This document shows positions 1-53,700 of a DNA stretch of 64,000 nt, in pieces. This DNA comes from Perna viridis (Eukaryota), in NCBI GenBank assembly GCA_037379345.1, contig CM074518.1, forward strand, positions 38,219,586 through 38,283,585. Direction: 5' to 3'. A model generated the notes under the pieces. It was not told where the DNA came from. It saw only the letters and a program-made list of their open reading frames with translations, and did no database searches. A program made the translations under genes and the position numbers. How positions within the stretch are numbered: position 1 is the first letter of the stretch; every line of letters begins with the position of its first letter.

Positions 1-204
1 GTACATGTTTAACTTGCCCCTTTACTGGTTTCGATATATATATGTATGTTACGCTTCTTTCTGCTACGTGTGTATTGTGATGATAGTATTATATCAAAGC
101 TATTCCTAAAATGTTTGCATTATCTTATATGGATTCAGTGGACCATTTCATTTTATCCAGGAATTATTTGTTTACCGAATTCTGAATTTCATTATTTCTT
201 TCAG

Positions 205-408
205 TTGACCCAATTCTCAACATTTATATACTCGTTACGTCGCTATACAGATACTGTATGTGCTGCTGTTGGCTTTAAAACCAATGATAGGAGGTCAAAA
301 AGTATTATTAATGCCAGATGTGAACGTGCATGTACTTCTGTTTTGCACTGTTTCATGAGTTTCTCGGTAGCGAAGCAGTTGCCTTTCGTATCCATTTTGC
401 TAGTGTAG
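205..408 (+). pseudogene. Decayed CRD zinc-finger cassette, paralogue of cassette 2
   Basis: 1-400 aligns by eye with about 1790-2200, including the intron (ggaattatttgtttaccgaatt...ctttcag|ttgaccca). Many small deletions break the Cys frame (atactgtatgtgctgctgttgg versus atactgtataatgtgctctgttgttgg). Confidence 0.8.
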
Positions 409-814
409 GGGAATGAATCACTTAAATTGTACCATAAGTGCTATACTCCCAAAGTAAATTTAGATTGAATTTTTTGGGGGTTTAACTTGAATCAGTTAAG
501 AATAAGGAGACAAAAAAATACCACTTTGATTCTGGTCAAATGCTTATCCTGTGTCAAATATCTATTAGAGATCTAACTTCAAAGCTGTATTAAGTTAGTA
601 TAGTGTCCATACTTGCACTAACTGTTCAGCGTTCAACATGTGCGGTCGTATCAAAGTGCGCCCCGCAAAGCATTTAATAGTTTAAGTAGATTTGAGTCTT
701 TGAAGTTGTTTCGAGTTCGTAGTATCGATTCATTTTGAAAGCGATAGAATATTGTATGGTTTGGGCTTAAAATGTGTGAAATTCCAAGTTTATTTCTATC
801 GTTTATCCTTTCAG

Positions 815-1137
815 AGGTCTCCGACAATAGAGGTAGTCTATTTTTTACAAACCAACACGTGTTTGTCCGTGACGACACTGGTAGCAACAAGGCCTGTCTG
901 ATGTGTTCAGTTTTTGGCAATAAAACTAAATGTGGAGATGCTAGGAAGACGTATTATAAATGTACAGCTTGTAACGTTTTCTTGTGTAAAGGTGATTCGA
1001 ACTGCTTCAGAAATTTCCATCTTCTGATGGGAGAAACCGCTGTTACGATGCATGGAAGTCGTAGAGAGTTGCGGCAAACATTAGCATCAAAATACAATGA
1101 ATGGTGCAGTAAAACTACTAAAAATCCCACCGAATGA
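815..1137 (+). CDS. Cassette 1: putative alternative terminal exon, piggyBac-type CRD zinc finger
   Basis: Acceptor tttatcctttcAG at 813-814, phase 1. HVFV..CLMC-x18-CTACNVFLCKGDSNCFRNFH plus C-terminal tail. Stop at 1137, AATAAA at 1276. Confidence 0.85.
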
Positions 1138-1972: not shown

Positions 1973-2268
1973 TTGACCCAACCAACCTGTCGGTTTCAAT
2001 GCAACATTTATGTACTCGTGACGTCGTCAACAGATACTGTATAATGTGCTCTGTTGTTGGCAATAAAACCACCAAAAGTAAGGAGGTCAAAAAGTCGTAT
2101 TACAAATGCCAGATGTGTAACGTGTACTTGTGCAGGGGTGAATCTAACTGTTTTGCCTTGTTCCATGAGCTTCTTGGTAGCGAAGTAATGACTTTTGTAC
2201 ACGACAGGTCGACGACCAAACAGATATTGAAGGCGAAGTATCAGCGCTTGTTCCGAGAACACAATTGA
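1973..2268 (+). CDS. Cassette 2: CRD terminal exon
   Basis: Acceptor ttttactttcAG at 1971-1972, phase 1. CIMC-x19-CQMCNVYLCRGESNCFALFH. Confidence 0.85.
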
Positions 2269-2527: not shown

Positions 2528-2925
2528 ACGTTTCCAGGAATAAAAGAACTGACGAAAATCCTCAAGCACAGCACAGACTTGTGTATACTGAAGAAAAACG
2601 ATTAAGAAAATGCGTTTATTGCTATCATAAAAATGTGAAGACTTACAGCGGACATGCTGTGACGTCATATTTCCAATGTCAGGCTTGTGGAGTTGCTTTG
2701 TGCAAGACCATGCGAACTTGCTTTGTTGATTTTCATAAGTACATCGAGGAATCTGGTAACCCGATACAAATCGTTGATGGACGAAGGAATCGGTCTATCA
2801 AGTCTGAAGCATGCACCATTCCTTCGTTTAGGTCGGATGGTCGATCATCTGTTGATACTTGTACCCAAGATCCTGCACAAGAATATACTTATTGCATCAC
2901 CCTATCCTCTCCTGAATCTCAGTGA
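2528..2925 (+). CDS. Cassette 3: CRD terminal exon
   Basis: Acceptor cttctttctttcAG at 2526-2527, phase 1. HRLVYTEEKRLRKCVYC-x18-CQACGVALCKTMRTCFVDFH with a long tail. Confidence 0.85.
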
Positions 2926-3341: not shown

Positions 3342-3640
3342 ATCCACGAACTATAGAGACTGCAAAATCTAGCGATTTTTTCACATTCAAAGGAAACAAA
3401 CCAATATCCCTCCAGCAGTTACAATCAGTTGGTCATTTCATTGTTCCCACGTTTGAGAGAAAACTAAGACCTTGTATTCTTTGCTCTATGTGTAAAGTAA
3501 AAACGAAGTCTGGATGGCGTGTGTATACACGATATAAATGTGCTGGTTGTGACGTTCCATTGTGTACCAAACACCGAGACTGTTTCTTGATCTATCATAC
3601 CACTCTTCTTCAACACGCAGAGTCTTCAAACTTGTCTTGA
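3342..3640 (+). CDS. Cassette 4: CRD terminal exon (absent from the ORF track)
   Basis: Acceptor ttttccattttcAG at 3340-3341, phase 1. Manual translation: (D)PRTIETAKSSDFFTFKGNKPISLQQLQSVGHFIVPTFERKLRPCILCSMCKVKTKSGWRVYTRYKCAGCDVPLCTKHRDCFLIYHTTLLQHAESSNLS*. Confidence 0.85.
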
Positions 3641-3814: not shown

Positions 3815-4110
3815 AATATGCCGACAAACGATGCCATAGCCATAGAGATTTATTAGTTTGTTCATCCGTTTCTACTCTTGGAGCAATGGGTCACGTGTTA
3901 GTGAATAACCCGGATGGAAAGGCTAAGGCTTGTGTTTATTGTCTGAAAAATAATATCAAATCTAAAGCCGGATGGAAAGTTTATACTCGGAACAGGTGTT
4001 TGCTATGTGATGTTGCCTTGTGCACAAAAAACAGGCCATGTTTTTACCTACATCACAAGCCTTTATTAGACAACATAAATACATTTGGAACTGATTTACA
4101 GAAAGATTAA
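3815..4110 (+). CDS. Cassette 5: CRD terminal exon
   Basis: Acceptor ttttccctttcAG at 3813-3814, phase 1. GHVLV..CVYC-x18-CLLCDVALCTKNRPCFYLHH. Confidence 0.85.
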
Positions 4111-5262: not shown

Positions 5263-5503
5263 ATCTTAATAATATTCTCAGAAGTATTGACTGCATTTTT
5301 AAATTGGTGACGCTATTGGTAATGTGAAATATTTACCTTTGTAACTACATGTCCCATTTTATCGTACGGTTCCAGACCCGACTTTCATCTGCCTCTTTTA
5401 CTGTTTGTTTTCATCTGATTTTACCAAGTTGAGCTCGCTAAGTCAAAACAGAGAAAACATTTCTGTTTACAGTGTTGATACCTTTTTGTTTTCTTTGTTT
5501 CAG

Positions 5504-5802
5504 ACCAATCTGGCCAAAGTATGGGGACTCTGCCATTTTATCCATATACGGGACAACGAATCGATAGTGCATCATGGGAAAAACTGAAATCTTTAGGCCA
5601 TTGTATCACACCGACAGAGGGTCGGAAAGTTACTCCTTGTGTTTATTGCTCTATAAATTCTGTCCGTTCTAAGACAGGGCGTAAAACCTACACAAGAAAT
5701 AAATGTGGGCTTTGTGATATACCGCTTTGTACAAAAAATAGAGACTGCTTTAATCTTTTCCATTGGTCGGTATTGGAGAAAATATTTGAGGGTTCAGGAT
5801 AG
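5504..5802 (+). CDS. Cassette 6: CRD terminal exon
   Basis: Acceptor ttttctttgtttcAG at 5502-5503, phase 1. GHCIT..CVYC-x18-CGLCDIPLCTKNRDCFNLFH. AATAAA at 5910. Confidence 0.85.
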
Positions 5803-6849: not shown

Positions 6850-7133
6850 GGATGATTGCTGTCCCATCAGATATAGATAACAGGCTTGCTAATATACAAT
6901 TTTGGAGGAGTCTTGGACACAATGGCGGCGACACCGAGGGAAGGAAAGTTCGTCCCTGTAAACTCTGTAGCATGCAAAATATTCGATCAAGTTCTGGACA
7001 GAAGGTCAAAGTTCGCCATCGTTGTCTGGCTTGTGACGTACCTCTCTGTATGGGACAGAGAGATTGTTTTTACCATTATCACCAATTGCTGTTTAGCACA
7101 AAAAGTGCTGAACCGTCAGTTGACATGAAGTAA
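6850..7133 (+). CDS. Cassette 7: CRD terminal exon
   Basis: Acceptor ttttacctttcAG at 6848-6849, phase 1. CKLC-x18-CLACDVPLCMGQRDCFYHYH. Confidence 0.85.
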
Positions 7134-7305: not shown

Positions 7306-7568
7306 ACACGGATGGATTTTCCCCAGATTACAAAGAAAGATTGGAAAATTTACAATCTTGGCAAAATCGTGGACATATTGTTGTCGATACTGATGACAAA
7401 AAAGTTCGAATATGCAAACTTTGTAACATGAACAATATCCGTTCTTTGTCAGGGCAGAAAATCAGAGTTCGTCATCGTTGTCTTGGGTGCAATATTCCAT
7501 TATGTGTTCGTCAAAGAGACTGTTTCTATAAGTATCACTTAGCGATTTTTAATCAGTCAATAAGTTGA
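7306..7568 (+). CDS. Cassette 8: CRD terminal exon
   Basis: Acceptor tttttcctttcAG at 7304-7305, phase 1. CKLC-x18-CLGCNIPLCVRQRDCFYKYH. Confidence 0.85.
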
Positions 7569-7758: not shown

Positions 7759-8045
7759 ATTTGGTACCCAAAATCTACATCAACCCACGTTTAATGACAA
7801 CAAAGGATGATGCTTTGAGAATTTTATCTATTCAGGGTCATACGATAATTGATACAGAAGAAAAACGGCTAAAACCCTGTGTTGTGTGTGCCGAGCGTAA
7901 CGTTCGATCGCATCGGGGCCATTGTATACGAATTCGCCATCAGTGTTCTAAATGCCGAGTAGCTTTGTGTATTGGATATAGAGATTGTTTCACCGCTCAC
8001 CATCAGTCCTTATTAGATCCAGATTGCAAATCAGATATCATTTGA
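7759..8045 (+). CDS. Cassette 9: CRD terminal exon
   Basis: Acceptor tttttattttttccAG at 7757-7758, phase 1. CVVC-x18-CSKCRVALCIGYRDCFTAHH. Confidence 0.85.
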
Positions 8046-8175: not shown

Positions 8176-8438
8176 ACATGCAATATCTCGGGGAGAGTAC
8201 TCGTTGTTCCAAGGATAATCGAGCTTACTGTCTCCAAGCTCTTTCCTTATATGGTCACAGAATTGTCGACACTCAAGGGCAAAGACTTCGAGCGTGTGTT
8301 GTGTGTGCTAGTCGCAATACTCGATCTAGATTTGGACTTAAAGTTAGAATAAGGCACCAATGCTCGAAATGCGGAGTTGCATTATGTGTTGGGAAACGTA
8401 ATTGTTTCTCAATCTACCACGATTCTCTTTTACAATAG
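8176..8438 (+). CDS. Cassette 10: CRD terminal exon
   Basis: Acceptor tctatattttcAG at 8174-8175, phase 1. CVVC-x18-CSKCGVALCVGKRNCFSIYH. AATAAA at 8504 and 8517. Confidence 0.85.
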
Positions 8439-9781: not shown

Positions 9782-10065
9782 GGTTTGATCCATTTGTATT
9801 ATCTTGCTATGCGACTGATGTGCAACAGAGAGCTAAGAAAAGAGAACAAACACAACAGCTTGCCAATCTCGGGCATGCTGTAGTTGATACGTTCAGTAAA
9901 AGGAAGAAAATATGTGTACAGTGCCTTAAAAACAATGTCCGTGCACCGTCAGGAGAAAGAGTTCGGGTGCGACAGCAGTGTGGGACATGTAACGTTCCGC
10001 TTTGTGTTGGATTCCGAACCTGTTTTGTCGATTTTCATAAAGCCCTTCTGGACAAACATTCTTAA
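9782..10065 (+). CDS. Cassette 11: CRD terminal exon
   Basis: Acceptor ttattttatctttcAG at 9780-9781, phase 1. CVQC-x18-CGTCNVPLCVGFRTCFVDFH. AATAAA at 10404. Confidence 0.85.
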
Positions 10066-11043: not shown

Positions 11044-11345
11044 ATTTACCAGCCCTTCAACAAATGGCATCAAAAACCGATGGGTTACCGATTGATCTTG
11101 AACAAAGGAAATACTTTGAGCTTGATCATAGACATTTTATGACATTTTTAGAAACCAAGGGCCATATTATCGTAAATACCATTGACTGTAAATTAAAACC
11201 GTGTAAATACTGTTCTAAGTACAAAATAAAAACGAAATCCGGATATCTAGCAAGGACCAGAAACAAATGTTATCTATGTGATGTTCCTTTGTGCACGAAA
11301 AATCGTGATTGTTTTTACCAGTACCACAAATCATTTATTCAATGA
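11044..11345 (+). CDS. Cassette 12: CRD terminal exon
   Basis: Acceptor tttctttctcctttcAG at 11042-11043, phase 1. CKYC-x18-CYLCDVPLCTKNRDCFYQYH. AATAAA at 11390. Confidence 0.85.
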
Positions 11346-11419: not shown

Positions 11420-11697
11420 GCTTGCACGATATTCCTTTCCTATCGTCTGCTATGGTGGAAATGAACCAGATATCCCATGATTCCATGCGCGAACATAAGC
11501 TTGTTCCGCTGGAACACAATCGTAGGAAGAGATGTAAATATTGCCAAATACGGCGGGTGAGAACAGCTGCGGGTGGGACATCTGAAACTGCCTACCATTG
11601 TCTGGCTTGCCAAATACCTTTGTGCCCCGGAATTAGATCAGGAAGGGATTGTTTTATCAAATATCACAAGGAATATATATTTCCCAGTCAAACTTAG
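11420..11697 (+). CDS. Cassette 13: CRD terminal exon
   Basis: Acceptor ttgtttccttgcAG at 11418-11419, phase 1. CKYC-x18-CLACQIPLCPGIRSGRDCFIKYH. AATAAA at 11979. Confidence 0.85.
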
Positions 11698-12725: not shown

Positions 12726-13009
12726 GTAACATGGATGGAAAGCCGTCACAACTACATCAATTAACTTACAGTTCAGCCAAAACTGGTATACCGGGTCATA
12801 ACGTTGTACCGACTGATGGACGGAAACAAAAACTATGTAGATATTGTCGCGCTTATGAGAAAAAGTCACCTTCCGGTTGGAAAATCTTGACGCGCTCTAA
12901 ATGTGAAACTTGTAATGTTCCGTTGTGTCAGGATGTTCGAACTGAGAGAAATTGCTTTAGATTGTTTCATGAGGAATATGTGTTTGGAAAACAATTCAAG
13001 TTTATGTAG
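12726..13009 (+). CDS. Cassette 14: CRD terminal exon
   Basis: Acceptor tatttcttcttgcAG at 12724-12725, phase 1. CRYC-x18-CETCNVPLCQDVRTERNCFRLFH. Confidence 0.85.
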
Positions 13010-14144: not shown

Positions 14145-14431
14145 GTAGTGGTACCAGTTCAAATGTACAGGTCATTCCTCAGAAAAATCCTCCTCCGTTG
14201 TTACGAGTAACATCTAGTCTTGAAGGTCATGAGTTAGTCCCGAATGATGGTTTCAAACAAAAAATATGTCACTTTTGTAGGATGACTGGACAGAAAACTG
14301 TTTCTGGCTGGACAGTTTTGACTGGAACTAAGTGTTCATTGTGTAATGTTCCACTTTGTAGGGGTACAACCCGGCCTCACAGAGAGTGCTTCAGATTATT
14401 TCATGAAAGGCTTCTATCCCAGAATCAGTGA
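14145..14431 (+). CDS. Cassette 15: CRD terminal exon
   Basis: Acceptor ttcttttattttcAG at 14143-14144, phase 1. CHFC-x18-CSLCNVPLCRGTTRPHRECFRLFH. Confidence 0.85.
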
Positions 14432-14745: not shown

Positions 14746-15032
14746 TTGAATATTTGTTGACAGAAAAGAAAGCGAGTTATCCTCTTCCGGGTCAAAGGTT
14801 ACAGTCGCTATTAGAACTAACTCCGAAGGGACACCATTTGGTTACTACGGAAGGGTATAAACAAAAGGCATGTCGGTACTGTTCTTTAATAGGAAGGAAA
14901 ACCTCTACAGGGAACACTATTTGGACTCGTGTCAAATGTTCCGTCTGTGATGTACCGTTATGCCAGGAGACAACTAGAACACAAAGACAATGTTTCAAGT
15001 TGTATCACGAAAAAATTAGTTACTCGGATTAG
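14746..15032 (+). CDS. Cassette 16: CRD terminal exon
   Basis: Acceptor ttgttctcctttcAG at 14744-14745, phase 1. CRYC-x18-CSVCDVPLCQETTRTQRQCFKLYH. Confidence 0.85.
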
Positions 15033-15808: not shown

Positions 15809-16212
15809 ATCCCTGATCATTGGAGGTAATATTCCTATTGTTTATACTATCCTTGATCATTTGGTAATATATCTATAGTTTATACTAGCTTTTATCATTG
15901 GAGGTAATATTTCTAGAGTTTATACTATCCTTGATCATGGAAGGTAATATTTCTATAGTTTATACTATCCTTGATCATGGGAGGTAATATTTCTAGAGTT
16001 GATACTATCCTTGATCATTGGAGGTAATATTTCTAGAGTTTATACTATCCTTGATCATGGAAGGTAATATTTCTATAGTTTATACTATCCTTGATCATTG
16101 GAGGTAATATTTCTAGAGTTTATACTATCCTTGATCATGGGAGGTAATATTTCTTTTGTTTATATTTTCTTTGTTCATGGGAGGTAATATTTCTATTGTT
16201 TATACTTTGCAG
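15809..16212 (+). repeat. 40-bp minisatellite, about 10 copies, running into the cassette 17 acceptor
   Basis: Unit ggaggtaatatttctagagtttatactatccttgatcat(t/g). The last unit ends tatactttgcAG. Confidence 0.95.
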
Positions 16213-16412
16213 AAGCGGATGTTTTAATGCATAGGTTGGTGCCGAATGAGGGACACAAGCAACGGAAATGTAAACAATGTAAAAGAAATCGGGTCCGGAC
16301 CAAAAAAGGATGCCGTGTTAATACAAGATTCCACTGTGACTTGTGTAACGTGCCACTATGTCGGGAGCGTAACTGTTTCCAGCAATTTCATCAACAATAT
16401 CACTTTCAGTGA
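16213..16412 (+). CDS. Cassette 17: CRD terminal exon (shortest)
   Basis: Acceptor tttatactttgcAG at 16211-16212, phase 1. HRLVPNEGHKQRKCKQC-x18-CDLCNVPLCRERNCFQQFH. Confidence 0.85.
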
Positions 16413-16777: not shown

Positions 16778-17037
16778 GCTACACAGTGTCAGAGACTTCA
16801 TTTTGGTACTCTTTTGACTCCATGAATTCTGGTATTCCTGGACATAAAATTATTCCAAACGAGGGTCATAAACAAAAGAAGTGTAAACAATGTCAGAGAA
16901 GTAAGAGGAAAACTAAATCTGGTTGGCAAGTAGCGTCAAGGTTCCGTTGTGAGAGTTGTAATGTTTCTTTGTGCCGTGATAATTCTTCTAAGAGGGGCTG
17001 TTTTAGACAATATCATGAGGAACTTGGCTTGATATGA
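16778..17037 (+). CDS. Cassette 18: CRD terminal exon
   Basis: Acceptor ttgacgttttgtAG at 16776-16777, phase 1 (a second in-phase cAG lies at 16785-16786). CKQC-x18-CESCNVSLCRDNSSKRGCFRQYH. Confidence 0.8.
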
Positions 17038-18876
17038 CCACAGGTATTAAACTGCCACCGAGTTCAGTGAAAATGTGAAGGCAGTATTGTTTGCCATTGG
17101 CATTTCCAACGAAATGAAAATTTGACCACAATATAAAAGTAGAATGTTGAATTTTGATTAGCGTTATTTTAAAATCTTTCGGTTTCATTCTGTGTAATGG
17201 CATGCAGGTAATGGACATATGATCTACCTGAGAGCAAAAATACATGTGGTTCAGGTATACTGTAGATATTTATGAAAGTATATGGTACCTATTATCTCAG
17301 TTCCCTCTTAAGAAGCACACAATATTATGTATTGTTTTTTCTAGATTTTGTCTAGTAGGCTTTACATTTTTTTTTAATTTGGCGGCGAGCAACAATAATT
17401 GGAAAAATATTTTAACCTTACTGACGATATGCTGGACAAATTAACATAAAAGGATACTTGTTTTCAATACTCGGCATATTACAACAAAGGCATAATCTAT
17501 CTTGTTGGTTCTGGTTAATATATCTACCAGTTTCAATGTTATACTTTAGCATTCCAAATCGGTTAATAATTTAACTTCATAAAATGCTGTAAATAATGAA
17601 TAATCCTCCATGAAAAATGCTGATTTTATAATCCAATATAGACACAGTTTCTCAGAGTTTTGTATTGTTGAATGCTAGTGTTGAGAAAACTAATCAATTA
17701 AACTTCTACTTAGAGTTACATTACTATCATCTTGATTTTACCATAAATTGTTAATCCCAAGTTTAAATATCAAGCTTATAACATTAAGACCCCAATTCGT
17801 TTTACCATGATTACAGTCAGAAACCAAAAGTTTGTATACACCATAAACAATTTCAGGTTTATTTATAGCAATCTTTACCCGGTATTTCAATATTATATGC
17901 TTCCGCAAAATATACATTGGAAGATAATCAAGATCACCTTATAAACAAGATGTTGTTGTAGATCTTTGGGACCTTCAAAACAAATCTACGAAATTAATTA
18001 TGTATTTGTTCGACTTCAATCACAATATATATGCTGGAATATCGAGGAATGACTTATCTGTTAAATTTATTTCTATTCATAGACATTACAGTCTATTTTG
18101 TGTTGGAATAAATGGCTTTTTTAAGTTGGCTCATTGTAAGATTTTGGGTTATGCCCGACCAGTTGTTACTAAAATACATTGAATCTGTGTTGCTCGAATT
18201 ATATAATAAAATGAAACTCTAGAAAGGAGGATCTCGTGTAACTTCTTGGAGTTTTTTTTTTCCATGGCCACGAACTGGAATTCTTAGTTACATATGTAAC
18301 GATGCCCTGTATCCGTCTTTTGCCGAACTGAGTACAATGGGTTACTTCTTTTGGTAAATAAAACAATTTAGAATCTCTGTTACCGATGTGTTCCGAATGA
18401 ATATATTATCAAAATATAAATCCACTATGACCATTGTCCATACAAACCTCAACCGTCTTTCTCGGTTTACACGTATCATCTTTGAAATTCAAGGGGGTGT
18501 CCATGATGACCTAGGCACGATTTAATCGATTTGTTCGGGAACTTCGAAAAAATAATCGGAATCATCTACTTTTGATATTTGCTCTGATGCTCCAATTACT
18601 GTTAATATTGAATTGGAACAAAGGACAAAATAAAAGAAAAAAATAATGGTGGATATATTATCGTTATATCTGTCTAGTTTCTTTATAGAGAGTCTCTTAA
18701 ATACGTTTACAATAGAAATGATAACGGACATGCTGAAACGTAACAAATGCACCACTGTAGATAACCTAAATACAAAATAATAATTTCAAGCATTCGATAC
18801 ATACATCGTTTCAATAGACTATCGGCTATAAAATTTAAAAAAAAAGTTTAAAAAGTTACTAGTCATACTTCCAACA

Positions 18877-19155
18877 GAGGACGCTTACCCTACCGGTGCA
18901 CCTGGTCCATGCTCCCAGTTTTTAGTGGAGTCCGAGTTGCTCATTTACTTTTGTTACTTTGTATGTATGATTTTAGTTACTTTGTGTTCTTTGTTGTGTA
19001 TGTCTGTTTTCCATGTGTGGTCTTTGTCCCTGGATTACATTTTTTTTATTACCGCTATAACCTTGGTTCCTTTGATTACTCTGCCATGTCAGGTCTTTGG
19101 CCTTGGATTACATTCTTTTGATTACCGCTATAACCTTGGTTCCCTTGATTACTCT
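18877..19155 (+). mobile_element. Dispersed SINE-like repeat (family C) with duplicated 3' segment
   Basis: Matches reverse-strand copies at 49196-49405 and 43791-43941. The 3' ~70 bp occurs twice in tandem; tccaaca flanks both sides (possible TSD). Confidence 0.7.
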
Positions 19156-20705: not shown

Positions 20706-20944
20706 AAGAAAAAAATGGAATGAGTTGCATGGTTAGCGGAAATGACGAGAAACATCATCATAGACTGGTTCCATTAGGGTTTGGAAAGCAGAGAACCTGC
20801 AAACAGTGTAGGATTTTAAAATCTAGAACCCGAACCGGACTCCGGATATTTACCAGATACAAATGTGAAGCATGTGATGTGGCTTTGTGCAATCCCTTTT
20901 CCTCTGACCGGAATTGTTTTTTCGCATACCATCAGCATTCGTAA
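20706..20944 (+). CDS. Cassette 19: CRD terminal exon
   Basis: Acceptor cctgtttctttgtAG at 20704-20705, phase 1 (TAGAAG tandem acceptor). CKQC-x18-CEACDVALCNPFSSDRNCFFAYH. AATAAA at 20943, 21240 and 21379. Confidence 0.85.
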
Positions 20945-22738: not shown

Positions 22739-23274
22739 GTGCTCGTCTTCCAGCGAGAGGTGCCAGATTGTCTAGACAAAGGTACCCGCCTAGAGATAAC
22801 CGTTTCTACTCCCACGCGCTCCAAGAACAGACAAGCCAAATAGGGCAGTATGGGCAAGGTTGTATGGAGGATAGTCGATGGATTAATAGAAAGCCTTCTG
22901 GTGTAGGTGGTACTCAAACATCTTACGACTCGAGTCGTTTGCAAGTTTACCAAAATAGCCAAAAGGTCGATGGTGGTATCTCCAGACCTTCCGAAAATAA
23001 ATCTTACATACATCCAGTCCAGTTGCAGGGTCTAGATAATTTGCCTGGTCATAAAATTGTCCCGGTGGAAAAGAAGACTGGGATGCGGTGCCTTTATTGT
23101 CAGATCCACAAAATAAAAACTCCTTCCGGTTGGAGGGTCAAAACCAACTATAAATGCGAAACGTGTGGTGTACCCCTCTGTTCCAAAGAAGTAACTGAAC
23201 GGAATTGCTTTAGATTACACCACATAGAGATGTTTGGCGATACCATTCTTGAATCAGAGGAAAATCCGTTTTAG
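22739..23274 (+). CDS. Cassette 20: CRD terminal exon with long N-terminal linker
   Basis: Acceptor ccttcctcattgtAG at 22737-22738, phase 1. About 100-aa Q/S/G-rich linker, then CLYC-x18-CETCGVPLCSKEVTERNCFRLHH. Confidence 0.8.
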
Positions 23275-24121: not shown

Positions 24122-24507
24122 ATAGCAGCATTTCTAAGGAACCTTCACCGTTCTTGTTTGGAGACACAGACAAAAGGGAAGACGTCATACGAAATTTGCA
24201 CCGGAACGAAATCCCAGAAGACACTATTCACGGCGAGCAATCTCAACGAAAATCGTTACAAAATTTACCATTTTCCAATATGCCCGAGGGTCATTCCCTT
24301 GTTTTGGTAGGGATCAGTGAGAAAACTGGGTGTGTGAAACAAAAAGACTGTCGCTACTGTTCGAAGTACAGTGTAAAAACTAAAAGTGGATACACTGTCC
24401 GTACACAATATAAATGTTCCGGATGTGATGTTGCACTTTGTTCTGGTGAACTTACCGGTAGGAACTGTTTCGTTCTGTTTCATAACGAACTTTTCCTTGG
24501 CGTGTAG
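24122..24507 (+). CDS. Cassette 21: CRD terminal exon
   Basis: Acceptor ttttgacctttcAG at 24120-24121, phase 1. CRYC-x18-CSGCDVALCSGELTGRNCFVLFH. Confidence 0.85.
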
Positions 24508-24581: not shown

Positions 24582-24956
24582 TTAGACTAGCACTCCAGCT
24601 AAGAATCATGCAAAATGTGATTCATGGTTGGAAAGCCTATATATTTTTATTTTTGATATTTTATTTAAAATGTTATAGCTTTTCATGTTCTTGGGAGATA
24701 AAAGTTATATAAAGTATATCGCAAAATTCAAAATTAAGGGAGATAACTCTGTAAATGACACTAAAATACAATAGAAACTCTTGGATTTTTTCAATGTGGT
24801 TTATCTCATAAGGGAAGACAGATTGGAATTGATAATTATACATTTCATCATACAGACCTATAAACAACTTAATTACAAAAATAAAAATATGTAACTTTTT
24901 TTAGGTGTATCACATATTACAGAATATGCATGATTCTTACATAGACAGCTACTTAA
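24582..24956 (+). mobile_element. MITE family A, diverged copy
   Basis: Homologous to 25625-26029. Left end eroded, right end cagctacttaa, short internal deletion. Confidence 0.85.
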
Positions 24957-24978
24957 ATTTATTTATTTGACGTTACAG

Positions 24979-25331
24979 GACAATTGTACTACCCAACAGG
25001 AAATAGACCAAGATTCGTACAGAAGAAACACTTGCCATCAGATGATATTCTCGGACAAAGCTCGCTTCATTATTCGTACCCATTTACCAAGGAAAATCTG
25101 CCAGAGGGACACAATCTTGTCCCTATTCCAGACAACAGGAAGAAAGACTGCAAATTCTGTCGTCGTCATAATATTAAAACAAGGAGAGGATATTCCGTAC
25201 AAACTCAATACAAATGTGCTGTCTGTGATGTGGCGTTATGTTCAGGGGTGTACAATAATAGGAACTGTTTTGTAGACTTTCATAACGAAACCTACATGAT
25301 CCAAAGAAACATTTCACAAACAGACATGTGA
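24979..25331 (+). CDS. Cassette 22: CRD terminal exon
   Basis: Acceptor tatttgacgttacAG at 24977-24978, phase 1. CKFC-x18-CAVCDVALCSGVYNNRNCFVDFH. Confidence 0.85.
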
Positions 25332-25624: not shown

Positions 25625-26029
25625 TTAAGTAGCATTCCAGCTAAGGATCATGCAGAATGTGATTCATGGGTAAAAAGCCTACATATTTTTATTTTTTTAT
25701 ATTTTGTTTGAAATGTCATAGTAAACAGAAATTAACATGTGGTTTTTCATATAACCTGTGCTCTTACGAGATAAAAATTGTATAGAATGCTCTGTAGATT
25801 TCAAAATTAAGGGAGATAACTCTGTAAATGACGCTTAAATACAATAGAATCTACTGGATTTTCAATGTTGATTATCTCCTAAGAGCAGGCAGATTTGAAT
25901 GAATAATTACACATTTCATAGTATAGACCCATCAAACAACCTAATTACAAAAATAAAAATATGTAGCCTTTTTTGGGGTGTATCACATTTTTCAGATTTT
26001 GCATGATTCTTACAAAGCCAGCTACTTAA
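25625..26029 (+). mobile_element. MITE family A (about 405 bp, TTAA-flanked, imperfect ~40-bp TIRs)
   Basis: TTAAgtagc...gctacTTAA, with subterminal aag(g/a)atcatgca / tgcatgattctt. Five copies in the window. Confidence 0.9.
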
Positions 26030-26135
26030 AATCTGACTTGGGGCCAGAATCCATTGTCTGGTGCTTGTTTGGTTGCTCAAAATATTTGCAAAACATTTTA
26101 GCATATAATTGAAAGATGCACTATTTTACTTGCTG

Positions 26136-27016: not shown

Positions 27017-27393
27017 ATGGCAGTAACGCTGTTTATGGAGCTCATGATTTTGGAGTAGGTGGGGATGGCTTACCTGGCCAAATACACAATGCACATCTGT
27101 TGTCTCTATCTGAAATTCAGAGAGATCTTCCGATAACTTTTTCCAATTTCCCGGGAACAAATCCGATGCCTTTACCGGAATTTTCAGGGGGCCATCGGCT
27201 TGTATTGACGGATGGAAGGAAATTACGGAATTGTCATTACTGCGAACAGCATTGTGTCAAGACTAAAAGTGGATATACCACACGGACTAGATATTATTGT
27301 CAAAAGTGTAACGTGCCATTGTGTGTTGGTCGATACAGGAACAGAAATTGTTTCGTTGATTATCACAATACGATGAACCAAATAAATGATTAA
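27017..27393 (+). CDS. Cassette 23: CRD terminal exon
   Basis: Acceptor tttgactattacAG at 27015-27016, phase 1. CHYC-x18-CQKCNVPLCVGRYRNRNCFVDYH. AATAAA at 27445. Confidence 0.85.
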
Positions 27394-28721: not shown

Positions 28722-28996
28722 AGTATATACAGAGATTGTTTGACCAGCCTAATTTAGGTCCCATTCCTATTGGAGATATGTCTGACCACCCATTGGTCCA
28801 TATCAACGAGAAGCGCACGCAAAGGGACTGTAAATACTGCCAGATCCATAAGATAAAGTCAAAGTCAGGGTTGCGTCTAAAGACTTTGTTTAAATGTGCA
28901 AAATGTAACGTGCCCCTATGTGCCGCACAAAATACGGACCGACACTGTTACGTTTTGTTCCACAATGAGTTTATATTCGGATATTCTCATATGTAA
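28722..28996 (+). CDS. Cassette 24: CRD terminal exon
   Basis: Acceptor ctttgtttctttcAG at 28720-28721, phase 1. CKYC-x18-CAKCNVPLCAAQNTDRHCYVLFH. AATAAA at 29083. Confidence 0.85.
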
Positions 28997-32662: not shown

Positions 32663-32988
32663 AATTAACCACTCTACAGATGATAAACATGGATGATATA
32701 ACAGTATTACCTTTATCCGACTCCAGAACTCGATGGAATATGAATAGAAAATTTCACATACCCGGGCACCAAGTGGTACCCATTGGAATGGCAAATGAAC
32801 AGAGGGACTGCAAGTACTGTCAAAAGAAAAAGATTAAAACGAAACGTGGATGGAATGTGAAAACTAAATTTAAATGTGATAGGTGTAACGTAAATCTGTG
32901 TTCCGGTGACATGACGTCACGAAATTGTTTCGTTTTGTTTCACGAAGAGTTTGTATTTGCTGGTAATCAGAATCCTTATACCACATAG
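32663..32988 (+). CDS. Cassette 25: CRD terminal exon
   Basis: Acceptor ttctactttttcAG at 32661-32662, phase 1. CKYC-x18-CDRCNVNLCSGDMTSRNCFVLFH. Confidence 0.85.
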
Positions 32989-34699: not shown

Positions 34700-35880
34700 T
34701 GCAATACTTGACATCTATTTTCGACGACCACTTTCAACCTTATAGCTAAAGTACAACATATTCATTTTCCTGTTGTAGCACAATGCCTCAGGAAACCATA
34801 GTCCATCATTAGCAGTTAGAAACGTCTTGAACTGTTGACTAAATCGCGGTAACAATGTCAAATGGTTCGATGAATATCCAACGACATAAAGGATTTCGTG
34901 ACTATCAACGCATATGCCGTGTGGCCATCGAATTTAGGAATTTACAATATTTTCCCCCTGTTGTGGAGCAACATGTGATTTTGTCATTTTTCCAATCGGT
35001 GTAATATATCCTGTCTTTGAATGTAGTTATGTAATTAACATGATCAACATCCACACTCAGAGTGTTCTAAACAATACCCGATTCATCGATCATCGCAACA
35101 CCCTTTCCTTTTACTATTACATTAAGTCACCCGCTTTGGTAGGATACTCCATAGCATTCTCCGCCAGGTCGGACTTTCTTTTTGATCTTCTTCTTTGGTG
35201 CTGACTAAGATTATTAGAACTTTATCTTTATATGTAACAGCAATACGGTCCACATCAATTACAGCTACATTGCAAACGGAAGGCTTAGCAGGACCGAAAA
35301 TGTCACACACATGGTGGTCATCTTCGGTGTACTTTGTTAGCTTGCCGTTGTACTCAGTGATGAACAATCTACCATCTCCTGACAAAGCGCACCCGATGAT
35401 AGCCTTGTTGCTAGTACCTATTTGTATATCAATGACTTGTTTTGAGCTTAGCTCGATTTCTAGACTAGATATATCAATTTGAGCTTGATTTAAGTCAGCG
35501 TGTCTGTACACTATACTAGGTGTCGTATCCATCACCTGGATATCACCAAAAACTTTGGATATCTTTGATTATAGATGAAATAGATGAAATAAATTTTCAC
35601 CTGAAACATGAATAACTTTGATACGTTTAGTGTATTTTTGAGACAGTCGATATTTCTTGTAAAAGTATTTCTCATTTGTCGAACAGCTTAAAATAATACG
35701 ACTTTGGATGCCGATTCTTGAATATGAATGAGAGAGATTTTAATTTGTGTGAATTCTTCATTAAAGGACCTCAAACTGTCTAGTATTGAGGGGCACTGTG
35801 CTCGTCAGTCTTTGTATTTTTCTTCAATATCCTCTAAAAGTTGTTTTTCTAGTCGGTCTAGATGTTTATCTAATTGTTCG
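34700..35880 (-). pseudogene. TRIM-like / NHL beta-propeller pseudogene, antisense within the array
   Basis: ORF 35122-35535 (IIGCALSGDGRLFITEY..VAVIDVDRIAVTY) continues after frameshifts as ECYGVSYQSG*LNV..IDESGIV*NTL..DRIYYTDWKNDKITCC and WPHGICVDSHEILYVVGYSSN..DGLWFPEALCYN. These are NHL-like repeats with in-frame stops. The 5' limit is approximate. Confidence 0.75.
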
Positions 35881-37842: not shown

Positions 37843-38183
37843 ATCAAAATGAAATGATTACACCACAATTATTTCCTGATGATATGGCTTTCCTCTCTAC
37901 ACAACAGGAGCTGCTGGTTGGAGATACAATGTCAAAACAGGTACCAGACAGGACGAAAAAAGGCTTTCAAATATATGGACACAAACTGGTACCCACGGAC
38001 GACAGAAAACAGAAGTTGTGTAGATATTGTCGGGCAACGTGTCAAAAGTCTCCGTCAGGACGTAGAATTCTGACAAGATCGAAATGTGATACATGTAATA
38101 TACCATTATGTATGGACGGAACAACGGAAAGAAACTGTTTCCGATTATACCATCAATTTCTTTTTAAACATACATCTACCTGA
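37843..38183 (+). CDS. Cassette 26: last CRD terminal exon of the array
   Basis: Acceptor cttgtttgttgcAG at 37841-37842, phase 1. CRYC-x18-CDTCNIPLCMDGTTERNCFRLYH. Confidence 0.85.
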
Positions 38184-38970: not shown

Positions 38971-39373
38971 TTAAGTAACTATCTTTGGAAGAATCATGCA
39001 AAATCTGAAAAATGTGATACACCCCAAAAAAGGCTACATATTTTTATTTTTGTAATTAAGTTGTTTTATGGGTCTATAGTATGAAATGTGTAATTATTCA
39101 TTCAAATCTACCTGCTCTTAGGAGATAATCAACATTGAAAATCCAGTAGATTCAATTGTATTTGGGTGTCATTTACAGAATTATCTCCCTTAATTTTGAA
39201 ATCTACAGTGCACTGTATATAATTTTTATCTCCTAAGAATACGGGTTATATGAAAAACTGAATGTTAATTTCTGTTTACTATGACAATTCAAACAAAATA
39301 TCAAAATAAAAATATATAGGCTTTTTACCCATGAATCACATTTTGCATGATTCTTAGCTGGAGTGCTACTTAA
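38971..39373 (-). mobile_element. MITE family A
   Basis: Reverse-complement copy of 25625-26029 with TTAA at both ends. Confidence 0.9.
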
Positions 39374-39493
39374 ATTGCGCCAATAAATTAATGATCATTT
39401 TGCCACAGAATACAAGTAAAGTTACATTTGTGGCGTGGTTATTTTGGTTCGTTTTTTTTTCAAATCTCTATAATTGGTTGTTCATCTTATATT

Positions 39494-39710: not shown

Positions 39711-41127
39711 GTCAACCTAAATGACTGCATTACAAAGTTACATATGTAAACCAGTGAGTATGGCCATCTTTTTTATTCAGCTATGGGACATGTTAGCGAC
39801 AGACGGACAGACGAGCAATACTTAATCCATTATAAAATAGAAGAACTAGTAAACCATTTACATATACGTTATCCAGTTATTTCTCCTTTCTTCTTGTTAA
39901 TTTTGAATTTTTGAAGTTGAAGCTTGAAAAACAAATGATTACAATCAATTTAAATTGAAAATAAAAAAAATAAATAATTATAATAAAATATTTATGGTTG
40001 GTTTTTATTCTGGATATGTTTTTAAATATATATGTATTTTATATGTTTATTTTCTTTAATTCATTTCTAATTCATTTTCTTTATTTTATGATCGGTTTAC
40101 TTTAAATTTTTACTTCTTTGATATTTAATTTACTTTTTTGTATTTGGCGCAACATGTAAACACGAAAAAACATTTTTTGGCGCAATTTAAGTACCATTTT
40201 ATATCCAATTAGCTCAAAAGGACGATGCCCATTTTTGTATGCTATAACTACAAGTACATTTTGTACATTTTGTACTTTGGTGGCTGTCTCACAGACATTC
40301 TCCTGCATTTCTACTTTTATAAACAGCTACATGCTTTGAGCGTATGATACCCCGTTCCTCTGATAAAAGGAAATTGAACCGTTATTTATATCATATATTA
40401 TATATCATGCTGATGTTAACCCTTTAAACATGTTTTTTTTGTACCGTGGTGGACTTTTTATAATACAATACAGGGAATTTTATTCTTCAGGTTACAGTGC
40501 GACATTTGGGAAAATCCTAGAATATTAAAAAGTTCCATTACTCTGAAACTGAAAGTAGAATTTCCTTCAAAAAGTATACCGTTTGATCATTATAACAAAC
40601 AATTGTGTAAAGCTGATAGTTTTAATAACAAGGGGTTCTCAAGGTAGAGTGCGTCATGTGAAAAATCCCATTTAAAATATGAAAAAGTCTGTAACAAACA
40701 ACTGTGATGAGATGTAAAATATTAATCCTTCCTTTCTTTAAATTCAAGTCTCATAAATGGGAAACTAAAGCTAAAAATAGAACTTCCTTCAAAAGGTATA
40801 CAGACTGTTACACTATCATTACAAACGATTGTACAAGAATAAGGGGATTCTCAAGGTGCCACATGTTAACACGATCGGACGGACGAACGATATACGATCT
40901 ATATTTGACGGGCGTTTAAAAAAAACGCAGTGTGGACCAGGTACGTAGATGGTGTACTTGTTCCCAGCTTTTCTTAAGGAATTCTTCAAATAATAAATGC
41001 AGTATTTGCTTACTTTGGAAAGTAAATGTTTCTTGTTAATGTAGGAACCGTGTCTGCTGACACTATCAGGGTATACTGTTGCAAAGTACATGTTTATAAG
41101 ATCGTCATGTTTATTTATTATAACAGA

Positions 41128-42625
41128 CTTTCTAAAGGGGACATTATACCTCACGGCATGGAAAACTTCTGATGGAATATTACACCTCTTGGCATGGGAA
41201 ATTTCTGGGGACATTTTATCTCATGTCATTGGAAACTTCTGTCGGAAAACTATACTTCATGGCATGGGAAACTTCTGGGGGAAGCACCATACCACATGGC
41301 ATTGGAAACTTCTGGGGGAACATTATACTTCATTTCATGGGAAACTTCTGGCCAAACATTATACCTCATGACATGGGAAACATCTGGGGAACATTACATG
41401 TATACTTTATGCATTGTGAACTTCTGGGGGAAGCATCATACCACATGGCATTGGAAACTTCTGGTGGCACATTATACTTCATGGCATGGGAAACTTCTGG
41501 GGAACATTACATGTATACTTAATGACATTGGATACTTCTGGGGTAACATTATACTTCATGGCATGGGAAACTTCTGAGAGAACACTATACTTCATGGCAT
41601 GGGAACCTTCTGGCTGAACATTATACCTCATGATATGGAAAACTTCTGGGGAACATTACATGTATACTTTATGGCATTATGAACTTCTTAGGGTAGCATC
41701 ATACCACATGGCACTGGAAACTTCTGGGGGAACATTATACTTCATGGCATGGGAAACTTCTGGCTGAACATTATACCTTATGACATGGGAAACTTCTTGG
41801 GAACATTACATGTATACTTCATAACATTGGAAACTTCCGTGAGAAGCATCATACCACATGGCATTGGAAACCTCTGGGGGAACATTATACTTCATTGCAT
41901 GGGAAACTTCTGGCTGAACATTATACCTCCTGACATGGGGAACATTACATGTATACTTTATGCCATTGTGAACTTCTGGGGGAAGCATCATACCACATGG
42001 CATTGGAAACTTCTGGGGGAACATTATACTTCATGGCATGGGAAACGTCTGGGGAACATTACATGTATATTTAATGACATTGGAAACTTCTGGGGGAAGC
42101 ATCATACCACATGGCATTAGAAATTTCTGGGCTAACATTATACTTCATGGCATGGGAAACTTCTGTGAGAACACTATACTTCATGGCATGGGAAACTTCT
42201 GGCTGAACATTATACCTCATGACATGGAAAACGTCTGTTAAACATTACATGTATACTTTATGGCATTGTGAACTTCTGGGGGAAGCATCATACCACATGG
42301 CACTGGAAACTTCTGGGGGAACATTATACTTCATGGCATGGGAAAATTCTGGCTGAACATTATACCTCATGACATGGTAAAATTCTGGGGGAACATGTAT
42401 ACTTCATGGCACGGGAAACTTCAGGGGAACATTGTACTTCATGTCGTGGCATTGGAAACTTCTGGGGAACATTATATCTCATGGCATTTGGGAGCATTAC
42501 GTATATATATGATGGCATGTGGAACTTTTGGGAGGACATTATACCATATGGGAAACGTCCCGCGGAAAACATGATACCTCATTGAAAACTTCCAATGGAA
42601 TATTTTACCTCATGGGAAACTTCTG
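41128..42625 (+). repeat. Complex satellite of about 30-37-bp subunits with higher-order pattern
   Basis: Recurring tggcatgggaaacttctggggaacattatacttca, with variant subunits (aagcatcataccaca, ggctgaacattatacctc, acattacatgtatactt) in repeating order. Confidence 0.95.
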
Positions 42626-50346: not shown

Positions 50347-50748
50347 TTAAGTAACTGTCTTTGTAAGAATCATGCACAATCTGAAAAATGTGATACACCT
50401 CAAAAAGGCTACATATTTTTATTTTTGTAATTAAGTTGTTTTATGGGTCTTTACTATGAAATGTGTAATTAATAATTCAAATCTGCCTGCTCTTAGGAGA
50501 TAATCAACATTGAAAATACAGTAGATTCTATTGTATCTGAGCGCCATTTACAGAGTTATCTCCCTTAATTTTGAAATCTACAGTGCATTCTATATAATTT
50601 TATCTCCTAAGAACACGGGTGATATGAAAAAGCACATGTTTATTTCTGTTTACTATGGCAATTCAAACAAAATATCAAAAATAAAAATATGTAGGCTTTT
50701 CACTCATGAATCACATTTTGCATGATTCTTAGCTGGAGGGCTACGTAA
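50347..50748 (-). mobile_element. MITE family A
   Basis: Reverse copy, ttaagtaac...gctacgtaa. Confidence 0.9.
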
Positions 50749-53700
50749 ATAGTTGTTGATTTACGAATGTAGTGTACCAGCTAATCATAATGGTAGTGAT
50801 ATCGATGACGCAATGACTTGATGACTGGAGGGGAGGTCCTTGATGACGTAGTTGATGTTGGGATAATTTAGGGTGTTGTTTAATTTATTTTTTATAGTTT
50901 TATTCATGGGAGAACCAGTTCTCCCTCTTTTCTTTCGGGGATTTAAGGATTTCTCCACTCTCGATAGTTATATTTTAGATTTTAACTGTCTCGAGTGGAG
51001 AATCCTGTAATCCCTTCGAGACTGAAGGAGAATCTACATATCTCCTTCATTTAAACAGTGATATCAGACGTCTGTCTATTACCGAATCCCCTTGAGAGAG
51101 AATAATTCGTTCGATCTAAGATGTTTGTTTTTCTGTTTGCTTAGACAAGTTTCCGACAGAGCCAAGGCCCTGTTCAGACAAATTTCAATGTACATTGTAT
51201 ATACCCTGCAAAGCGCAATGTACTTCAAATTTCCGTGCATTTGTATTGTCATCATGATCACCATCCGATAATTTGAACTATTGCAGTTTGACAAAAAAAA
51301 ATGCTTAGTCATTTTGTGTATAGGCGCCTTATTGTTAAAAACAAACACTTTACCAAAATAGCATGACAAATGTTGTAGGCTGAACGAATATAATAAACGA
51401 TTGTTTAGTTTTATAATCTAAAGTTATATGATGAATATTATAACTCTATAACTTGCAGGTGCACGATTTACGCTAAATTAAAAACTTTGATTAAAATATA
51501 CGATTATATTAGTGTTACAATGCAAAATTAAGCAATAATTATTCAAATTGTCCGATAAAATCACATTTCTTTGTTCATTTTCTTAAAACTTTAAGTTTCT
51601 TTTCTTTTTCATCTATGGTAGCAAACTAATTTCCACCCTATTTTCATATACACAACTCAATGCCCTTGTGCGATTAAACTGTTTTTTTTTTAATTAAACG
51701 CAATATTGAAGTGGATGGGATATCTGTGTCACGAAAAGTTGTGGTAAAATCCCCTGAATATTTGTATTACAACGGAGAAGTAGTGAAACATGGACTTATG
51801 ACGGCGGGTTGAAGGGGTGGGAATGGTAGTGGAGGGGACGGGGAACGGTGGTTGAAGGGGCAGCGAACGGGTAGTGAAAAATGCGGGAAGCGGGGATTAT
51901 GGTTGGGAACAATAACCGGGGATAAAATGAAAGGGGTCAGGAAGCGGTGGTCAGGAGGATGGAAGGTGGTGACCTAGGGGAGGAAGCGGGGATGAAACAC
52001 CCCTTGTCTAACCCTTACTTATAGTAATTGTATATATTAAGGCATTGCCTGGTTTAATCAAGTACGGGTCGAGGGATACCAACTGTACTTTATAAGCACA
52101 GAAGATCTTCACCACTTACTTAGTGGTAGCTACGGTATTTATTTGCAATTTATTCTATTTTTGTCATTAAATACCTGCTACAGGACCCTCACTTTATTCA
52201 ATCTATTAACTTTTATTAAACATAATTGTGGGGAAATTAAAAGTTTAAAGGGACTTACGAGAAAATGTAAAATTTCCCATTCTAAATGGATCCATTGACT
52301 TTCGCTAATAACAAAACTCTCCGTTGTTCGGTGTTTGTTCCTATTATTTAATATATATTTGCTAGGCTGTTCTATACTGTAATTGTTTGATTTGCGACAC
52401 TAGGCGGTATAAATACGCATACCTACCCAAATATATGCAAAGGGAATGTTTTAATAATTTTTTTATAGATGAGACATTATAAATATTTATCATGTTCCAC
52501 CCATTTAAAGCGGTTTTGTGTTTTACTTGGTATTACACAGCTGACGATGATATTCGGAACTCCAACACGTACAGCAAATGACTTTTTTTACAAGACTCGT
52601 CATAACTCATCAAATGTCTTTTCGCTCACCAATTTGTGAAAATACGAACTACGGTATCTATACTAAATTTTCAACGAGTGCGTAATAAATTGCTTGAAAG
52701 ACTTGTACCTGCCTAGGCTTCAGTGGATAAACTTATTACATTTAAGGGGTCATGCATGAACATACAGGGACGTGTAATGTGAAGTATCGATTTTTCGTCC
52801 AATTTGGAGTGACAACTGCGTGATTTTTAGTCGCCCGAAGCGGATTTTAAAGGATTCCTGAGTTTTTAATGAAAGTTCCTCATGTTCCGTGTGTAAGTCC
52901 AGCATGTGATACTTTATTACATAACTTAGAAATATGATTATTTGATTTTTGGTGCCACTTTTCTCGACTACGAAGCTAGGTAGCCAATAACATAAGCCCG
53001 TGATTCGATGTCTCTGGGAGACTAAGGGATTAGAATCTGATTGAAGTCCAAATACACAGGTATCTTTTACGCCAACCAAAACTATCTTTACACAGGAGAG
53101 TTAGATAGCCTATTGACATCCGATGACATTATTTAGAAAGATGAACCGTACACAGATTAAAATATTAATCTAGTACAATAGTTTCTCTAATACCAGTGAA
53201 ATATTTATCTTCGATATTCTGTTATTTATAGAATACCTAGATGTCAAGTGTTCGATAAACTATACCACTGACTGTGTGTATGAACTTCAGATTCTAATAC
53301 TGACTAAGTTTATAGACTCTATAACTTAACAATTATTGTGTTTGTCTTCCCATCTCAAAATCCCTGACTTGTCAGTTTGATAGGAATATATCTTCCCTGT
53401 TGTAATCCGATTTTCAGATTATTATTTTTGTACAATCTGATTTTCTGGTATAGAAGACGTTGTTTTTGGATGCTAGCATTGTTAGAGAAGTCGTGAAGCT
53501 ATTGATAGATTTTACTACAAGAACTACAAGCTAATCCGCCCGTTTCACTTGCTTCATTTGCTAGTCTTGGAAGCCTTTTCATAGTTTAGAACAGCTTTGA
53601 AACTTAGCGCGATATATGAAGAAAACCCGTTTGAGCGTGAAAAAACCGTTGAATTCAGGGCGTCGGAAAGTACTTGCTTTTGACAATTCAGCTACCAAAA

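Follow-up and report, generated by a model that had tools for sequence, protein, structure and literature searches.

A BTB gene of the mussel Perna viridis with an array of alternative last exons for piggyBat-type zinc fingers

The DNA considered here is a 64,000-nt window of the Perna viridis genome (assembly GCA_037379345.1; contig CM074518.1, designated C8, positions 38219586-38283585), and it holds 26 of the 30 intact alternative ends of a BTB gene whose three constant exons lie to its left. That architecture, in which the upstream constant BTB exons are spliced to alternative last exons, is regarded as practically certain. The fuller statement, namely that the alternative last exons of this BTB gene are joined by cis-splicing of one long transcript and give rise to a predicted DNA-binding family, is considered probable, with some reserve. 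The features are collected in Table 1, where negative window coordinates are genome positions minus 38219585; the 200 kb to the left of the window were examined.

A reading of the window from its sequence only had noted no shared coding exon within it, and had placed the shared N-terminus to the left, either upstream or supplied in trans. A search of the 64-kb window with the constant protein indeed gave no match, and inspection of the upstream scaffold located the three constant exons 12-15 kb upstream (-15495 to -12260), in the correct order and on the same strand. Because exons in the right order and orientation are present only 12 kb away, supply in trans from elsewhere is unneeded, and the upstream half of the proposal is the one borne out. 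Conceptually joined, the three exons yield a stop-free CDS of 1693 nt, equal to 564 codons plus one base. The constant part has a Pfam BTB match, and the domain resembles the ZBTB/BACH type. No BACK or Kelch match was returned for the constant part in a domain search, and inspection of its N-terminal sequence found no FxLRWN motif, the mark of Tramtrack. The best 60 of 76 PDB matches of the Mytilus orthologue are Miz-1, BCL6, BACH, other ZBTB proteins and KLHL-type proteins, and the nearest Atlas clusters of the BTB are chordate BTB proteins. By analogy with ZBTB domains, the constant BTB would be expected to dimerise.

Four cassettes (three zinc-finger and one C2H2) occupy the region between constant exon 3 and the window, as had been anticipated when more cassettes were proposed to the left. 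In the window itself, the 26 intact zinc-finger cassettes extend along the + strand from a first acceptor at 815 to a last end at 38183, and their 26 open frames, all + and spanning 748 to 38183, share one Cys/His pattern. The 30 intact ends of the gene thus comprise 29 that are zf-Tnp_2-like and one C2H2. It had also been claimed that the array is already under way at position 1 with a decayed cassette and ends at 38183, with none in the next 26 kb. Both points agree with the present data, since a frameshifted copy is found at ~205-405, and a profile built from the array cassettes detects no further member between 38184 and 64000 or within the 40 kb that follow. Under a simple home-made scoring rule, the best acceptor is in phase 1 in 28 of the 29 + strand zinc-finger cassettes, and the second-best is so in the remaining one (27017). 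Such a bias would hardly arise by chance, and the shared phase agrees with the phase-1 donor of constant exon 3, so that the reading frame matches.

Median identity among the cassettes of the array is 38%, whereas the pair -709/815 is near-identical (98% in the domain). The decayed copy has kept its acceptor AG at 203-204 and carries frameshifting deletions relative to cassette 1973; together with the -709/815 pair, it records how a unit of two cassettes was recently duplicated in tandem. The array may have begun with the capture of one zinc-finger exon from a piggyBac-like transposase, followed by tandem duplication that, given this pair and the decayed copy at 205, would still be ongoing.

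Table 1. Positions of the constant exons, cassettes, sister genes and paired intron motifs. Window coordinates are used except where C8 is given, which denotes positions on the contig.
Feature	Position	Strand	Remark
Constant exon 1	-15495..-15345	+	outside window, left side
Constant exon 2, with BTB core	-14337..-13121	+	BTB frame at -14352
Constant exon 3, phase-1 donor	-12609..-12260	+	junction reads
Predicted intron stem in last constant intron	-12203/-11828	+	
C2H2 last exon	-6047..-5749	+	
zf-Tnp_2 cassette	-1910..-1606	+	
zf-Tnp_2 cassette	-1350..-995	+	
zf-Tnp_2 cassette	-709..-393	+	
Intronic spacer at left window edge	1..204	+	
Decayed cassette	205..405	+	frameshifted copy of 1973; end approximate
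zf-Tnp_2 cassette	815..1137	+	most reads mapped here match the -709 copy
zf-Tnp_2 cassette	1973..2268	+	phase-1 acceptor; contig pieces begin at acceptor
zf-Tnp_2 cassette	2528..2925	+	exon-3 sequence on contigs of 3 runs
zf-Tnp_2 cassette	3342..3640	+	4 raw reads joined to exon 3
zf-Tnp_2 cassette	3815..4110	+	contig starts; Mytilus orthologue 75%
zf-Tnp_2 cassette	5504..5802	+	6 raw reads and 2 contigs joined to exon 3
zf-Tnp_2 cassette	6850..7133	+	3 raw reads joined to exon 3
zf-Tnp_2 cassette	7306..7568	+	phase-1 acceptor; contig start
zf-Tnp_2 cassette	7759..8045	+	5 raw reads joined to exon 3
zf-Tnp_2 cassette	8176..8438	+	phase-1 acceptor; Mytilus orthologue 66%
zf-Tnp_2 cassette	9782..10065	+	phase-1 acceptor; contig starts
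zf-Tnp_2 cassette	11044..11345	+	3 raw reads joined to exon 3
zf-Tnp_2 cassette	11420..11697	+	phase-1 acceptor; contig start
zf-Tnp_2 cassette	12726..13009	+	contig start; Mytilus orthologue 78%
zf-Tnp_2 cassette	14145..14431	+	acceptor used in joint 13416->14143; Mytilus orthologue 68%
zf-Tnp_2 cassette	14746..15032	+	phase-1 acceptor; Mytilus orthologue 75%
zf-Tnp_2 cassette	16213..16412	+	phase-1 acceptor; contig start
zf-Tnp_2 cassette	16778..17037	+	phase-1 acceptor; Mytilus orthologue 67%
zf-Tnp_2 cassette	20706..20944	+	phase-1 acceptor; Mytilus orthologue 79%
zf-Tnp_2 cassette	22739..23274	+	domain match; phase-1 acceptor
zf-Tnp_2 cassette	24122..24507	+	domain match; phase-1 acceptor
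zf-Tnp_2 cassette	24979..25331	+	profile match; phase-1 acceptor
zf-Tnp_2 cassette	27017..27393	+	phase-1 acceptor is second-best scoring
zf-Tnp_2 cassette	28722..28996	+	orthologue is tail of Mytilus P0001, 69%
zf-Tnp_2 cassette	32663..32988	+	domain match; phase-1 acceptor
Last zf-Tnp_2 cassette	37843..38183	+	domain and profile match; phase-1 acceptor
Gene 2, divergent sister BTB gene	-38711 to -91748	-	BEN, 8 zf-Tnp_2, DUF3504-like and two further ends
Broken recent copy of exons 1-2	about -98930 to -101071	-	stop, frameshift
P4	C8 24.89 Mb		8 pipsqueak-type exons and C2H2 exons (~55 kb examined)
P5	C8 24.45 Mb		21 pipsqueak-type exons and C2H2 exons (~55 kb examined)
P6	C8 3.03 Mb		13 pipsqueak-type exons and C2H2 exons (~55 kb examined)
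P7	C8 48.43 Mb		14 pipsqueak-type exons and C2H2 exons (~55 kb examined)
P9	C8:43254772-43257808		single terminal zf-Tnp_2 exon
P10	C8:2990811-2995760		single terminal DUF3504-like exon
P6 motif/partner	C8 3032932/3037759		
P5 motif/partner	C8 24447750/24443874		
P7 motif/partner	C8 48434573/48445639		

The cassette domain is that of piggyBac-like transposases. Pfam zf-Tnp_2 scored above cut-off in all ten cassettes tested, and eight His/Cys residues (six Cys and two His, including an upstream His) are invariant in 26 of 26 cassettes, with the pattern His-CxxC-CxxC-C-C-His. A single cassette gave nothing significant against PDB; a profile of the cassettes gave piggyBat transposase as its best match (E 2.6e-4). 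For a structure model of a cassette (pLDDT 82), the top Foldseek rows were piggyBat (9c0f) and then PiggyMac (6zop), with weak E-values of 0.12-1.5; the piggyBat fold match has a probability of 0.96, a TM of 0.51 and an E of 0.12. The C-terminal domain of piggyBat binds a palindrome as a pair, and its sequence-specific DNA binding has been demonstrated (PMC11707139). In contrast, a PiggyMac domain of the same fold was reported to bind histone H3, though weakly, in a study that cautions against predicting the substrate from the fold (PMC8086355). Based on the profile and model matches, the cassettes are predicted to encode DNA-binding domains. They share the cysteine-rich pattern of piggyBat, PGBD2-4 and PiggyMac, but differ in being present as 29 diverged copies detached from any transposase core; no such core precedes the cassettes. 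In addition, piggyBat uses Cys3His1 plus Cys2His2, as opposed to the six Cys and two His that are invariant here.

Evidence for joining comes from one raw run recorded as RNA (X21, 19% read) and from contigs of runs that were only guessed to be RNA; read mapping covered the cassettes in the first 20 kb of the window and not the eight beyond 20 kb. First mates in the raw run fall on the - strand in all bins, meaning that the + strand is transcribed. Raw reads at acceptors 3340, 5502, 6848, 7757 and 11042 (4, 6, 3, 5 and 3 reads, respectively; 21 in total) end in constant exon 3, with an agreement of 0.99-1, and contigs of three further runs show an exon-3 end at 2526, as do those of two of these runs at 5502. 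Exon 3 is thereby joined by RNA to six of the 30 alternative ends. The sequence-only reading had drawn an analogy with mod(mdg4) and lola, which is strengthened by a constant domain that proves to be BTB and by reads that join the BTB exons to cassettes. It had also named a distinct 5′ end for each cassette as the outcome that would speak against a shared front; at all six acceptors with visible joined sequence, that sequence is exon 3. Six further reads, at 835, run from exon 3 into the first letters of the -709 copy, so the 815 copy can be no more than a minor form. At seven more predicted acceptors (1973, 3815, 7306, 9782, 11420, 12726 and 16213), contig pieces start two bases ahead of the acceptor, with 24-28 unaligned letters.

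Relatives of the gene are found in several bivalves. Constant exon 2 matches 166 proteins, and the organisms named among the 120 listed are mussels, scallops, oysters, a pearl oyster and an ark shell. Many of these best 120 are RefSeq isoforms that combine BTB with zf-Tnp_2, C2H2 or HTH_psq, while BEN and DUF3504 ends also occur among relatives (best 120 of 410 matches). A search with the divergent paralogue P9 gave three close proteins only. The orthologue in Mytilus californianus is LOC127705185, whose constant part is 70% identical to that of the P. viridis gene and whose RefSeq isoforms are numbered to X40; isoforms of this kind are already predicted by RefSeq. Among 15 Mytilus tails compared (of 28 members), 10 have one clear best cassette at 66-84% and five, at 47-54%, do not. 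One-to-one matches at 66-84%, set against 38% within the array, indicate that individual ends are old and have been maintained.

Related constant parts with like ends also occur in LOC127705183 and LOC127704711 of M. californianus, and in Pecten LOC117336493 and Magallana LOC109620264 with zf-Tnp_2, C2H2, HTH_psq, BEN or DUF3504 ends. All of these bivalve loci, including the orthologue, are labelled "uncharacterized" by RefSeq and are automatic database models only. No description of them was found in the literature searched, a scope that excluded most subscription journals. An oyster survey of 2025 states that oyster BTB genes have not been the subject of any publication, and reports two testis BTB clusters (PMC12111275); its transcription-factor tables may list these loci. 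Octopus BTB fusions are mentioned in a survey of transposon-derived factors (PMC10027918).

The contig that carries the gene is itself rich in related genes. A search of C8 with the BTB portion of exon 2 yields 11 hits at E < 1e-7, self included. At least five of the sister BTB genes there have arrays of their own, made up of pipsqueak, C2H2, BEN or DUF3504 exons or of exons for the same zinc fingers. The design is thus present in at least six genes of one mussel, and relatives occur in scallops, oysters and ark shells. Pipsqueak, BEN and DUF3504 domains, like the piggyBac zinc finger of the window gene, are linked to transposon groups, and the recruitment of ends from several such domain types suggests that transposon parts can repeatedly be turned into a source of diverse transcription factors. 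The single-exon form of P9 and P10 is possibly the pre-expansion state of the family; a flank search saw no array near P8 or P11. A third BTB copy, at ~-98.9 to -101 kb, was considered as a donor of constant exons and rejected on account of its stop, its frameshift and the lack of an exon 3 match.

In the favored reading, one long transcript would be made and exon 3 would be cis-spliced to one of the alternative last exons. Which end is chosen could depend on how 3′ splice sites and poly(A) sites compete, perhaps with help from RNA structures formed within the last constant intron. Two isoforms within a BTB dimer would then present two piggyBat-type zinc fingers, and exon choice would shift the target site through the paired fingers. 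Several observations favor cis-splicing. All cassettes lie downstream of the constant exons on the gene's own strand, and 8 of the 30 lack an A(A/T)TAAA ahead of the following acceptor. Transcripts also run through one cassette into the next, as seen in GT..AG joints that connect a cassette's 3′ UTR with the following acceptor (13416->14143 in contigs of three runs and 2957->3340 in contigs of two).

Short reads cannot separate cis- from trans-splicing within one gene, and intragenic trans-splicing could account for the same products, in whole or in part. In that case the transcript of the constant exons would terminate within the last intron, internal promoters would drive transcription of the array, and RNA duplexes close to the donor would guide or license the joint, as in mod(mdg4)/lola or mite sDscam-beta. 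This is a credible minority possibility, and the CpG pattern provides one argument for it. At +5 kb of the last constant intron (window ~-7260), CpG o/e climbs abruptly from 0.1-0.3 to ~0.9, a sharp end to the depletion that precedes the array, and remains high across the array. CpG depletion is read as gene-body methylation, and the switch at ~-7260 is a candidate for either an internal promoter or the end of a methylated gene body. In paralogue P6, however, depletion extends through most of the array, a point in favor of cis-splicing. Introns directly upstream of some acceptors are covered by RNA, with a contig depth that reaches about half that of the exon, and this RNA fits internal promoters as well as read-through. 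Strand order weighs against trans-splicing, as none of 104 cassettes over six genes (29 + 8 zf-Tnp_2, 56 pipsqueak and 11 C2H2) lies on the opposite strand, a count obtained with profiles built from same-strand exons and run on six frames. The variable exons of lola are likewise all on one strand. Mosquito mod(mdg4) also has them on a single strand, so same-strand order fits trans-splicing too (PMC4528330, PMC4667647).

Conserved pairing in the last constant intron is the other main argument for trans-splicing. An 11-bp stem (+57/+432) near the donor of the window gene is conserved, with three two-sided changes, in contig L079; column shuffles (n=60) reach at most 8 bp in this post hoc test of two sequences. 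Paralogues P5-P7 carry an 18-nt motif ~40 nt after the donor and an inverted copy 3.9-11 kb downstream, these being the only six matches in the 723 Mb of genome searched. A covarying variant of the pair with compensatory changes occurs in P4 (24.89 Mb), and each partner in P4-P7 is preceded, at a distance of 43-60 nt, by a second strong donor-like site. On the other hand, the P4-P7 motif is absent from the last constant intron of the window gene, the latter's own distant complement (+31/+1606) is not significant, as 10 of 150 controls do equally well, and a duplex would serve cis-splicing equally well. Strict Watson-Crick scores of P6, P7 and L079 exceed all 150 controls, while controls match those of the window gene (10/150), P4 (37/150), P5 (60/150) and gene 2 (126/150). 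When duplex energies were scanned over long windows, real pairs did not stand out from shuffles. A docking-site/selector model with one selector per cassette was also considered and discarded, as each donor-proximal motif has one clear complement (within <=60 kb).

Intergenic trans-splicing, by which cassettes would also receive a front end from the oppositely oriented gene 2, is quite improbable. The last constant exon of gene 2 does end in phase 1, and its array contains eight cassettes of the same family, but every listed loose end at the acceptors (21 raw reads at five sites, six at 835, and the contigs) corresponds to exon 3 of the window gene. The idea that cassettes are separate small genes or transposon debris draws on their transposase-type domain and on a likely transposase remnant with that domain on contig C7, and is negligible in view of the missing transposase core, uniform phase, junction reads and one-to-one Mytilus orthologues.

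The closest parallel to the joining of one BTB front to many ends is mod(mdg4) of Drosophila, in which common BTB exons are joined to one of ~30 alternative 3′ exons (PMC13490949, PMC4667647, PMC11426971). Both genes have shared N-terminal BTB exons, ~30 alternative 3′ ends with mostly one kind of small zinc-binding domain, and conserved elements early in the last common intron. In mod(mdg4), a control region occupies that position and is described as lacking donor-acceptor complementarity (PMC13490949); pairing-guided trans-splicing is known for mite sDscam-beta (as cited in PMC13490949). The two genes differ in that mod(mdg4) has a Tramtrack BTB, FLYWCH ends, both strands and proven trans-splicing, whereas the mussel gene has a non-Tramtrack BTB, piggyBat-type fingers and one strand. 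The Drosophila genes lola and broad also combine a constant BTB with alternative zinc-finger last exons (PMC4528330, PMC11426971). Their BTB is Tramtrack-type and their ends are C2H2, a type seen in only 1 of 30 ends of the mussel gene. In BTB type, the mussel gene resembles vertebrate Miz-1/ZBTB17, BCL6 and BACH1, to judge from the PDB matches of the Mytilus orthologue. Vertebrate ZBTB/BACH proteins carry fixed C2H2 or bZIP ends, and, unlike the mussel gene, are not known to have arrays of alternative transposon-type ends.

The FxLRWN motif marks the arthropod Tramtrack-group BTB (PMC11426971). Its absence here, together with the ZBTB/BACH/KLHL-type PDB matches, indicates that the mussel gene likely converges on the mod(mdg4)/lola design rather than being a member of that group. 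The design of one BTB with many DNA-binding ends has been described for arthropod Tramtrack-group genes, and the mussel version is built on a different BTB type. It thus offers an independent lineage in which to ask whether large last-exon arrays force trans-splicing, a question still open for mod(mdg4). A bolder conjecture, considered rather unlikely as a whole, is that the bivalve BTB family constitutes independently evolved, standing traps for transposon DNA-binding domains, with mRNAs trans-spliced via conserved duplexes in the last shared intron. Because P5-P7 have nearly the same duplex in common, front and DNA-binding ends might even be exchangeable between these genes, which are megabases apart.

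The window and its flank contain several other features. Tandem repeats are located at 41100-42480, 15823-16262 and 60978-61104, with units of ~36, 40 and 15 nt, respectively, and the 40-nt repeat abuts cassette 16213. On the - strand within the array's last intron (34715-35568), two short frames presumably represent beta-propeller (NHL/TRIM-type) fragments, and frames at window ~-140 to -153 kb, also on the - strand, are taken to resemble a nuclear-receptor ligand-binding region. Copies of a dispersed ~400-nt repeat occur at 24588-24958, 25625-26031, 38971-39375, 50347-50750 and 61295-61701. A dispersed ~280-nt repeat at 18875-19155 is very abundant in the RNA runs, and repeats at 15.2 and 18.9-19.2 kb draw large numbers of reads.
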